This document shows positions 1-1,968 of a stretch of DNA of 37,672 nucleotides, piece by piece. The position numbers and the translations under genes were made by a program. The DNA is from Escherichia coli. GTDB taxonomy: Bacteria > Pseudomonadota > Gammaproteobacteria > Enterobacterales > Enterobacteriaceae. The stretch lies in assembly GCF_051903065.1 (NCBI RefSeq), contig NZ_CP178442.1. One strand, 5' to 3'. The first letter of the stretch is position 1, and every line of letters begins with the position of its first letter. The notes beneath the pieces are model-generated. The model did no database searches and had not been told where the DNA came from. It worked only from the letters and a program-made list of their open reading frames with translations.

Positions 1-1285
1 CCAGCAATACATGAACAAAAAGTTCAAAATGACGGCACAAAAAACGCTGGATATTACGCAACAATTACGTGAAAAATATAAAGCGATTACTTATAACCGC
101 TCTGATTGCTCATATCTTTCTGATGAACAATTCAGCGAAGCACCGCAGGTTATCGATGCCCTGAAATCAGTCTTTCCTCAGTCGCTGGATATTGATTCTG
201 CACGTAAAAGCAAAGCGTTTAACAGTGCAAAGGTGACTGCGCATACTGCGATAATCCCGACCGCCAGTGTGCCTGATGTTAACGCACTCAGCACCGACGA
301 GCGCAATGTTTACCTGGCGATCGCACAACACTATCTTGTTCAGTTCATGCCTGAAAAAGCATACCAGGAAGTATCGGTTGCCATTCAGTGTGGTGATGAG
401 TCGTTCTGTGCCCGTGCCAGAAAAACAACTGACAGCGGATTTGAGGCGTTTCTTGGCGCGGAAACCACAGACGAAGGTGAATCAGAAGATAATGATGATT
501 CCGCTTTTGAACTGCTCTGTAAAATTCGCACAGGAGAAACAGTGACGACAAAAGAAGTGGTTGTGAATGAGAAGAAAACAACACCACCGCCATTATTCAC
601 CGAAGCCACTTTACTTGCCGCGCTTGTTCGTGTCGCAGATTTTGTCACTGATCCAGTGATTAAAAAATTACTGAAGGATAAAGATCGGGATAAAAAGGAT
701 GAACATGGTGGCATTGGTACGCCAGCTACCCGCGCAGCCATTCTGGAAACGCTGAAGAAAAGAAACTATATCACGCTGGAAAAAGGGAAACTTATTCCTA
801 CTGATACCGGATATGCGCTTATTGATGCCCTGCCTGGTATAGCAGTTAATCCTGATATGACAGCATTATGGTCTGAAAAGCAGACAGCCATTGAAAATGG
901 CGACCTGACGGTTGAAGAGTTTATTAATGAGCTGTACGGTGAACTGACAGGCATGATTTCTGATGTTGACCTGGGCGAGATGAAGATTGAACCCGCTGCG
1001 CCAGCAGGGCAGTTTCAACGCCTGGACTCTCCCTGCCCTTCCTGTGGTAAACATATTGTTATCAGACCAAAAGGTTATTTCTGTACCGGATGTGAATTTA
1101 AAATCTGGAGTGAGTTTTCTGGTAAGAAAATCACCCAGGCGCAGGCAGAAAAACTGGTTAAATCAGGGAAAACCGATTTGATTAAGGGATTTAAAAAGAA
1201 AAACAGTGGAACGTATGATACAGTTCTTGTTCTTGAGGATAAGAAAACAGGGAAGCTGGGTTTTCCGGCAAGGGCTAAGAAGTGA
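1..1285 (+). CDS. topB: DNA topoisomerase III, 3' part (C-terminal about 428 aa); CDS begins at 36804 near the window end and continues across the circular junction
   Basis: Reading frame is open from position 2; protein has the topoisomerase IA signature ([24 protein letters not shown]) and a C-terminal Cys4 zinc ribbon (CPSCGK...CTGCEF). Joining 37671-37672 (ct) to position 1 (c) gives an in-frame Leu codon and a sequence ([31 protein letters not shown]) colinear with E. coli TopB as I recall it. Confidence 0.85.
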
Positions 1286-1488
1286 AAACAAAGCAGGAAT
1301 GGCTTTTTCAGTTAAGAAAATGTACATCAAGAGATACTCTTGAAAAAGTTATTGAGATTAACCGTTACAAGCTGCCTTTATCAGAATCAGAGGCATTTTA
1401 TTCTGCCGCAGACCATCGCCGCGCAGAACTGGTGATGAATAAACTTTATGATAAGGTTCCTTCCGGCGTCTGGAAGTACGTCCACTAA
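1282..1488 (+). CDS. hha: Hha/YmoA-family nucleoid-associated modulator (68 aa, GTG start overlapping topB stop)
   Basis: Motifs [15 protein letters not shown]...[26 protein letters not shown] closely parallel Hha (LRRCQTIDTLERVIE...[22 protein letters not shown]). Immediately followed by an H-NS homologue. Confidence 0.7.
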
Positions 1489-1503
1489 ACAAGAGGATTA
1501 ATT

Positions 1504-1968
1504 ATGAGCGAACTGACTAAAGAAGATGAATACGGCATTATCAGCCGGACTATGATGAATATTCGTTCATTGCGTGTTTTTGCCCGTGAGATTGATTTTG
1601 AGCAGTTGCTCGAAATGCAGGAAAAGCTCAACGTTGTTATTGAAGAACGTCGTGAAGATGCTGAACGTGAAGCGGCTGAACGCCAGGAACTTGAAGCCAA
1701 ACGTCAGCAGGCCATTGAATACATCATATCTTTAGGTCTTGATCCCGAATCACTCCTTGCTCCTGTAACAGCTGATACAGTGAAAACCAGGCGGAAAGCC
1801 AAAGGCGGAGTAAGAAAGGCTAAATACCGCTTTAAGGATGAAAATGGCGAGATCAGAGAATGGTCTGGTAATGGCAAGCGTCCGCTTGCTTTACAGAAGC
1901 TGCTTGATGAGGGCCATTTCATGGAAGATTTCCTCATTGACAAACTGCAACCTGGGCAGGTTGAATAA
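1504..1968 (+). CDS. hns: H-NS family DNA-binding protein (plasmid-borne H-NS homologue)
   Basis: 154 aa; N-terminal coiled-coil region (IRSLRVFAREIDFEQLLEMQEKLNVVIEERRE) and C-terminal DNA-binding motif (KYRFKDENGEIREWSGNGKRP) resembling H-NS ([21 protein letters not shown]). RBS-like aggatta upstream of ATG. Confidence 0.85.
   Translation: MSELTKEDEYGIISRTMMNIRSLRVFAREIDFEQLLEMQEKLNVVIEERREDAEREAAERQELEAKRQQAIEYIISLGLDPESLLAPVTADTVKTRRKAKGGVRKAKYRFKDENGEIREWSGNGKRPLALQKLLDEGHFMEDFLIDKLQPGQVE

Follow-up and report, generated by a model that had tools for sequence, protein, structure and literature searches.

The stretch of DNA analysed here, referred to as the window, comprises 37,672 nucleotides from Escherichia coli (RefSeq assembly GCF_051903065.1, contig NZ_CP178442.1), and the system under study is a cluster of three consecutive plus-strand genes, topB, hha and hns, encoding a topoisomerase III, a co-repressor of the Hha/YmoA family and a homologue of the nucleoid protein H-NS. 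The window represents a complete circular IncX4 plasmid carrying cfr. It is a reverse-complement rotation of plasmid pSD11 (NZ_KM212169.1), from which it differs by five single nucleotide polymorphisms. The pSD11 record originates from E. coli of swine in China and is typed as IncX4, MOBP and MPF_T; its RefSeq annotation contains topB (record positions 11234-13387), hha and hns with boundaries matching those in the window. Positions 1-3000 showed 100% identity to many IncX4 plasmids, among them pCROD2 of Citrobacter rodentium. Comparison of the window with the whole of pCROD2 gave 99.94% DNA identity over positions 1-3603, where the match stops exactly at the inverted repeat of an IS26 element. 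The following segment, 3604-7488, consisting of the IS26-cfr-IS26 unit and about 700 bp more, is missing from pCROD2, and some of the pCROD2 cargo is in turn missing from the window plasmid.

Identification of the three gene products

The topB gene starts at position 36804 and runs over the circular junction of the window, so that its 5' part is situated at 36804-37672 (+) and its 3' part at 1-1285 (+). Joining of both parts gave one unbroken reading frame of 717 amino acids, coding for a type IA topoisomerase III. The 3' part holds the ITYNRSD motif, which we take to be the catalytic-tyrosine motif of type IA enzymes, a C-terminal zinc-ribbon-like repeat and the TGA stop codon at 1283-1285. 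The Pfam domains Toprim, Topoisom_bac and Toprim_Crpt were detected, and the protein scored above both NCBIfam topoisomerase III subfamily cut-offs (NF005829, 626.8 vs 597 bits; TIGR01056, 538.5 vs 515.75 bits). The topoisomerase III which the sequence-only reading had placed around the junction could thus be confirmed as a full gene spanning it. A Shine-Dalgarno-like sequence, AAGGA, was found 7 nt upstream of the ATG start, and the preceding open reading frame (ORF) stops 5 nt before this codon.

The hha gene (1282-1488, +) begins with GTG and encodes a protein of 68 amino acids, which matched the Pfam family HHA (PF05321) over profile positions 2-57 of 57 (E 8.6e-29, 100 bits vs a cut-off of 25) and the NCBIfam Hha subfamily NF008191 with 109 bits (cut-off 90). 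In the PDB, with E values of about 1e-23, it matched YmoA, Hha and, within the Hha/H-NS complex 4ICG, the Hha chain. Residues C14, E21 and D44 are invariant in the Hha alignment and align with C18, E25 and D48 (E. coli Hha numbering), D48 belonging to the H-NS-binding surface and C18 and E25 lying nearby. The plasmid protein is 60% identical to E. coli Hha. Its RefSeq accession (WP_000850859.1) is common to pSD11, pCROD2, one IncX1 plasmid and one mcr-1 IncX4 plasmid; an apparent identity of 98.5% in tblastn proved to be an artefact of the GTG start being read as valine, the annotated proteins being identical.

The hns homologue, designated hppX below, is situated at 1504-1968 (+) and encodes 154 amino acids from an ATG start preceded by AAGAGGA. 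The N-terminal dimerisation/oligomerisation domain Histone_HNS_N (PF22470) was found at residues 13-86 (E 6.1e-20, 71.3 vs 24.5 bits) and the C-terminal domain for DNA binding, Histone_HNS (PF00816), at residues 106-145 (E 5.1e-9, 36.2 vs 25.6 bits), while alignments in the PDB were to the H-NS structures 3NR7, 2L93 and 4ICG. The sequence-only reading had proposed both a 68-aa Hha/YmoA-like modulator and a 154-aa H-NS homologue, naming family matches of the two proteins beforehand as the check. Both ORFs lie exactly where it had put them, and all three Pfam profiles scored above their gathering cut-offs.

The H-NS homologue remained well under the NCBIfam equivalog cut-offs for H-NS (NF008193, 106 vs 211 bits) and for StpA (NF007656, 97.2 vs 202 bits), and is best classed as a paralogue and not as H-NS or StpA itself. 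Its capture from a chromosome as an H-NS orthologue was also considered and rejected: the equivalog cut-offs are missed, and the closest relatives of its C-terminal half fall into a small clade in which most of those sampled are linked to topB. Further differences from H-NS include a 9-residue N-terminal extension and the replacements of N9 by methionine, C21 by isoleucine and QGR by NGK. Conserved, on the other hand, are the interface residues equivalent to I11-R12 of H-NS, R21 of the homologue being aligned with R12.

The last of these replacements concerns the AT-hook-like Q/RGR motif of the DNA-binding loop (Q112-G113-R114 in H-NS), which is absent from the window protein; the latter reads WSGNGKRP where H-NS has TWTGQGRTP and the IncX1, IncX3 and IncX5 homologues have WSGRGR. 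NGK did not vary among the 15 members of the diverged clade, i.e. the window protein and 14 homologues with 46-81% identity to it, and by this conservation is to be regarded as a clade signature and not as decay. Fitzgerald et al. (2020), who defined the HppX clade, described it as the sole clade divergent at Q112-G113-R114, with R12, the Hha contact, being conserved. The gene in the window likewise occupies the IncX backbone position beside topB. The clade is small. The C-terminal 94 residues showed at least 90% identity in about 454 PLSDB plasmids and 60-80% in five records, with less than 60% elsewhere; in the PLSDB records listed, the identity of the C-terminal half to plasmid H-NS homologues of other clades did not exceed about 38%. 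Only 27 relatives came back from a search of 5.8 billion proteins.

The H-NS homologue carries the same RefSeq accession, WP_001293133.1, in pSD11 and in pCROD2, and since this accession is shared with the pCROD2 protein, the window protein can be equated with HppX_CROD2. Preference for AT-rich DNA appears to be retained despite the NGK loop, because this identical protein still favours AT-rich DNA in vivo.

Operon organization and evolution

All three genes are read from the plus strand in the order topB, hha, hns. The TGA stop of topB overlaps the GTG start of hha as GTGA, and hha is separated from hns by 15 nt. The topB-hha overlap amounts to 4 nt in IncX4 and IncX1 and to 1 nt in IncX5, and suggests translational coupling of the two genes. 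The complete order topB-hha-hns was found in IncX1, IncX4 and IncX5. In IncX3, in a 60%-identical E. coli relative and in a 51%-identical Arsenophonus relative topB is followed by hns without hha, and an IncI2 relative carries topB-hha without hns. From these arrangements hha can be described as an optional gene inserted between the other two, and topB and hns remain neighbours even among relatives of just 51-60% identity (E. coli, Arsenophonus). One NGK-type homologue stands alone, on the 98 kb E. coli contig AASKFR010000019.1 (locus 5001-5483, 160 aa, 64% identical over the full length), and may represent a copy, on a chromosome or a large plasmid, from an otherwise IncX-linked clade. Genes for an OmpW-like protein, a sulfatase and Cas2 were observed in its neighbourhood, with neither topB nor hha.

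A blastn comparison with the IncX1 plasmid p30155-2 gave a single block across the module, from 36790 over the junction to 1707, with 97.1% DNA identity and nothing past 1707. The shared part of hns (1504-1707, +) corresponds to codons 1-68, the Hha-binding N-terminal dimerisation domain, and is in one block with topB and hha. At the protein level, residues 1-61 of the window and IncX1 H-NS homologues are identical and divergence follows afterwards. Because the 97% identity to IncX1 ends inside hns, topB, hha and the N-terminal part of hns can be considered to move as one block, with a DNA-binding half that is specific to the lineage. The ratios of non-synonymous to synonymous changes per site (pN/pS) between the diverged IncX4 and IncX1 copies were 0.08-0.12 in topB and 0.19 in hns; in hha the ratio was 0, with 5-6 synonymous changes and no non-synonymous one. 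Ratios of 0 to 0.19 indicate that purifying selection acts on each of the three genes, and the possibility that they are decaying remnants was rejected on the same values.

Signals flanking the genes were also inspected. A promoter-like site, TTAAAA-17-TATGAT (1190-1219, +), which matched the consensus at 9 of 12 positions, is located within the 3' end of topB, some 60 nt upstream of hha. In 1-3100 the consensus scan gave as many such sites as expected from shuffled sequence, and as a possible internal promoter of hha-hns the site is weak, to be taken as a lead only. For R6K, the sfx promoter has been reported at the end of topBx. At the other end of the cluster, 11 nt past the hns stop, a GC-rich hairpin (1980-2007, +) was found, with a perfect stem of 12 bp and a loop of 4 nt. 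Folding of the region 1960-2030, in which it lies, reached -23.7 kcal/mol as minimum free energy (z = -4.29), a value equalled by 0 of 200 shuffles. The hairpin probably marks the 3' end of the operon transcript, as a terminator or stabiliser. It was rejected as a canonical intrinsic terminator, as a U tract is missing and the plus-strand terminator scan made no call. No RNA family was detected in or adjoining the module by Rfam at gathering thresholds. Directly past the hairpin lies an ORF of 218 aa (2072-2728, +) with a lipoprotein-like signal (…LLAGC) and no Pfam family; it is kept in pCROD2 and missing from the mcr-1-type IncX4 plasmid examined.

Proposed function of the operon

We consider it likely that topB-hha-hppX constitutes a conserved nucleoid-protein operon of IncX4 plasmids, whose filament would form mainly on its own plasmid and hold the transfer genes off by default. 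In the proposed mechanism, HppX would dimerise and oligomerise via its N-terminal domain and would coat AT-rich plasmid DNA via its C-terminal domain. Hha, which is deficient in DNA binding, would dock on the N-terminal domain of HppX through the R21/D44 pair, the equivalent of H-NS R12 and Hha D48, and would strengthen bridged, transcription-blocking HppX filaments. Such filaments would be located chiefly on the AT-rich backbone of the plasmid, including the type IV secretion and conjugation genes, leaving transfer silent by default, lowering the cost of carriage and keeping host H-NS off the plasmid. TopB, translationally coupled to hha, may supply the topology which HppX recognises, and topB, hha and hppX are presumed to be co-transcribed in the window plasmid.

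The likely counter-acting switch would be a PixR-like activator. It is encoded by an ORF of 88 aa (21316-21582, +) downstream of taxC, which is annotated as hypothetical and showed 47% identity to PixR (E 1e-24), the LuxR-type activator of IncX4 conjugation (PMC8725589). This ORF was observed to be far more diverged than the surrounding backbone, which has about 97.5% DNA identity with an mcr-1-type IncX4 plasmid.

Other work has shown that the identical protein binds its cognate IncX4 plasmid selectively in vivo. Chromatin immunoprecipitation sequencing of HppX_CROD2 (Stringer et al., bioRxiv 2026, 10.64898/2026.06.14.732234) revealed binding across pCROD2 and hardly any to the chromosome, with a plasmid specificity about 40-fold above that of chromosomal H-NS. 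Transfer of the protein and a target fragment to laboratory plasmids abolished the specificity. The preprint uses the term 'cognate plasmid specificity' and offers the speculation that the topology recognised is made by the neighbouring topoisomerase of the plasmid; it mentions neither Hha nor the DNA-binding motif. The sequence-only reading had stated that plasmid-borne H-NS and Hha proteins silence AT-rich DNA and limit cost. This is documented for the family, but for the IncX Hpp proteins the evidence to date indicates the backbone and conjugation genes of their own plasmid as the main target. As HppX_CROD2 is about 40-fold plasmid-selective and the chromosome is bound very little, the action of HppX is not generic xenogeneic silencing.

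Repression of conjugation, a fitness benefit and enhancement by Hha were shown for IncX1, IncX2 and IncX3 relatives and are extended here to the window plasmid by analogy. Deletion of the hns homologue increased transfer about 320-fold in IncX3, with a decrease in host fitness, the homologue acting via repression of prfaH, and about 150-fold in IncX1b (PMC11880322). HppX3 represses the promoter of the type IV secretion system and is displaced, i.e. counter-silenced, by VirBR (PMC11915502). Sfx of R6K requires its C-terminal domain and RGR motif and binds chromosomal Hha, a protein for which physical interaction with H-NS has been demonstrated as well. Deletion of hha raised R6K transfer about 10-fold in a Sfx-dependent manner, and loss of Hha lowered Sfx occupancy on R6K, the Hha in this Sfx work being the chromosomal one.

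Several points weigh against our interpretation. The literature search found no IncX4 experiment in which deletion of hppX, hha or topB alters conjugation, fitness or expression, and the direct IncX4 data consist of binding maps only. The plasmid-encoded Hha does not appear in the pCROD2 preprint, and it was with chromosomal Hha that the Sfx studies were performed. The idea that TopB provides the topology is an explicit speculation of its authors (10.64898/2026.06.14.732234). IncX4 plasmids are without the PrfaH/ActX target that is repressed by the H-NS homologues of other IncX groups (PMC11880322), and because this target is missing the regulatory wiring of IncX4 may differ from that of the other groups. 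At the protein level, HppX does not contain Q/RGR, while RGR was reported to be important for the function of Sfx, and the position of H-NS N9, which is relevant to Hha binding, is a methionine in HppX.

An unlikely alternative role is 'stealth', as for Sfh of R27, whereby HppX would top up the host H-NS pool, binding the same chromosomal sites and avoiding titration of H-NS. Plasmid H-NS paralogues have classically been proposed to contribute to the pool in this way (summarised in 10.64898/2026.06.14.732234); moreover, HppX_CROD2 expressed alone in E. coli binds the chromosome much like H-NS does (same preprint), and the N-terminal domain of HppX is near enough to that of H-NS for heteromers to be conceivable. 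In the native host with its plasmid, however, little HppX_CROD2 was found on the chromosome and host H-NS was mostly located on HppX-free plasmid regions (10.64898/2026.06.14.732234). The divergence of the C-terminal half from plasmid H-NS homologues beyond its own clade, to which it is at most about 38% identical, also speaks against this role. The two models overlap to some extent, as both allow for some reduction of cost through exclusion of H-NS from the plasmid. It is also quite improbable, in our view, that the three genes are mere neighbours, with TopB having its role in decatenation or conjugative DNA processing, be it in donor or recipient cells, and hha-hns forming an independent regulatory cassette. 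The dispensability of hha would fit this, topB-hns alone being present in IncX3 and in the E. coli and Arsenophonus relatives and topB-hha alone in IncI2, as would the one NGK-clade homologue without topB and the internal position of the Sfx promoter at the end of topBx. It is opposed by the finding that in three IncX groups the stop of topB overlaps the start of hha, by the movement of topB, hha and the N-terminal coding part of hns between IncX1 and IncX4 as one 97% block, and by a topB-hns linkage kept down to about 51-60% protein identity. A relief of Sfx repression by novobiocin, as cited in 10.64898/2026.06.14.732234, points in the same direction.

The silencing operon as proposed here could be taken further: plasmid Hha and the N-terminal domain of HppX may be a co-adapted cassette that is swapped as a block among IncX lineages, the NGK-type C-terminal half may tune DNA recognition, cognate specificity may be given by the trio including TopB and not by TopB alone, and occupancy of the cfr flanks may contribute to variable or 'silent' cfr. 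Taken as a whole, this extended version is rather doubtful. The module and its general role were already known, and the identical protein has been characterised experimentally; the additions made here are the NGK clade signature, the 97% block shared by IncX1 and IncX4 and the optional nature of hha, along with the purifying selection on the three genes, the hairpin past hns and the weak promoter-like site in topB. IncX4 plasmids are major vehicles of mcr-1 and cfr, and topB-hha-hppX is probably their default 'off' switch for transfer and part of their low host cost. The operon is for these two reasons a plausible target against plasmid persistence.

The cfr segment and the operon

The IS26-cfr-IS26 unit occupies positions 3604-6788, with two IS26 copies in the same orientation and IS26 ends at 3604, 4410-4423, 5969 and 6775-6788. 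The GC content between the IS26 copies is 30.1%, compared with 41.8% for the window overall, and falls to 23.5-26% in 200-bp intervals at 4501-4800 and 5701-5900, the lowest values in the window. The sequence-only reading had listed very AT-rich foreign DNA on this plasmid, naming the cfr segment and small membrane-protein genes at 9555-10315. For the cfr segment this stands. The small hydrophobic membrane-protein ORFs at 9555-10315 are real as well, with 33% GC, but they are not plasmid-specific foreign cargo: the region 9172-19191 is 99.5% identical to the cfr-free pCROD2, and the stretch in which they lie is missing from an mcr-1 IncX4 plasmid, so that these genes are better described as part of a variable backbone region.

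It seems unlikely to us that the AT-rich cfr segment between the IS26 copies is silenced to a measurable degree by the module, which would thereby set the level of resistance, though several findings would agree with this. The flanks of cfr hold the lowest GC in the window, the segment is only about 1.6 kb downstream of hns, and IS26-cfr-IS26 is regularly located downstream of hns in IncX4 plasmids (PMC7823714). HppX_CROD2 binds widely across its AT-rich cognate plasmid (10.64898/2026.06.14.732234). The resistance domain of R6K escapes Sfx and H-NS owing to its GC-richness, the cfr segment being AT-rich instead. A 'silent cfr' phenotype has moreover been described in E. coli, mostly on IncX4 plasmids (PMC7823714); pHNEP129 is a 'silent' IncX4 cfr plasmid. 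On the other hand, cfr on pSD11 and pGXEC3 confers florfenicol resistance according to PMC7823714, and silent cfr also occurs on IncP, IncI2 and IncHI2 plasmids (PMC7823714), the IncI2 relative examined here carrying hha and no hns. Within the cfr module, the silent IncX4 variant itself departs from pSD11, having 43 bp inserted upstream and 355 bp deleted downstream (PMC7823714). The high-affinity motif TCGATAAATT, allowing at most one mismatch, is not enriched in the window, having been found nine times against an expectation of 5.1 +/- 2.2 and not once in the cfr segment, a count to be read with the reservation that the motif was published for H-NS and may not apply to an NGK-type domain. 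The literature search on cfr and silencing by H-NS found nothing relevant. Binding of HppX or of host H-NS to the cfr segment is nevertheless plausible, because its flanks are the most AT-rich DNA of the window.

Some further observations concern the surroundings of cfr. Downstream of it, at 4529-4746 (-; 24% GC), a full-length match to the Rfam family 'Bacillus sRNA ncr1575' (RF02452) was obtained with 110.7 bits against a gathering threshold of 60. On account of this full-length match to a Bacillus sRNA family, the cfr segment can be assigned a Firmicutes origin. The ORF at 3032-3676 (-) contains a restriction endonuclease domain of the DpnII/MboI type (Pfam E 1.7e-49). It appears to have been truncated and fused by insertion of IS26, since the homology to pCROD2 halts exactly at the IS26 end at 3604, and its RefSeq name in pSD11, 'malate dehydrogenase', looks like a misannotation. 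In mcr-1 IncX4 plasmids IS26 is also situated immediately downstream of hns, and the DNA just 3' of the operon can for this reason be viewed as an insertion zone for accessory genes of IncX4. After the second IS26, about 700 bp with about 50% GC (6789-7488) were noted as likewise missing from pCROD2.

Direct repeats elsewhere on the plasmid

Two direct repeats of about 420 bp (14999-15418 and 17079-17498; about 51-52% GC) were found with a spacing of 2080 bp, the first 300 nt being 100% identical. Both are located in unannotated intergenic gaps, probably in the leading region, and are also present in pCROD2. Each ends with a sigma-70-like promoter, TTGCAA-17-TATTAT, with an overlapping palindrome, ATACGACTTAAAGGTCGTAT, just 5' of a plus-strand ATG. 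Folding as single-stranded DNA was only moderately better than that of shuffled sequences (z = -2.2 and -2.7). The repeats may represent a repeated regulated promoter or an element resembling a single-stranded DNA promoter.

Comparison with related systems

In E. coli, hns and hha are not linked on the chromosome, whereas the genes in the window are adjacent and plasmid-borne. With chromosomal H-NS/Hha of E. coli and Salmonella (PDB 4ICG, 2MW2) and with YmoA/H-NS of Yersinia, the window proteins have in common the two-domain architecture of H-NS and the Hha fold family. Among plasmids, the IncHI1 plasmid R27 is also conjugative and encodes both paralogues, Sfh and Hha, which co-repress transfer and reduce cost. 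Sfh belongs to a different clade (HppH), is about 36-37% identical to the window protein, has kept a QGR-type loop and binds the host chromosome widely. A linkage of Sfh to topB is not described in the Sfh literature surveyed, the R27 locus itself not having been inspected.

The relatives on IncX plasmids are closer. Sfx of IncX2 and HppX3/pH-NS of IncX3 and IncX1b are likewise plasmid H-NS paralogues encoded directly 3' of topB on IncX backbones of the MOBP/MPF_T type. Their effects are repression of type IV secretion and conjugation genes and better fitness, and they show a preference for their own plasmid. Overall, their identity to the window protein is about 47-51%, with 63% for an IncX1 mosaic; in the C-terminal half it does not exceed about 38%. 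They carry RGR where the window protein has NGK. In IncX3, moreover, there is no hha between topB and hns. The activators differ too, being PrfaH/ActX and VirBR for relatives of the IncX1b, IncX2 and IncX3 type and PixR for IncX4. The nearest system is HppX_CROD2 of pCROD2, which shares with the window plasmid both protein accessions, the topB-hha-hns layout and 99.94% of the DNA over 1-3603, and is distinguished from it by having no cfr unit.

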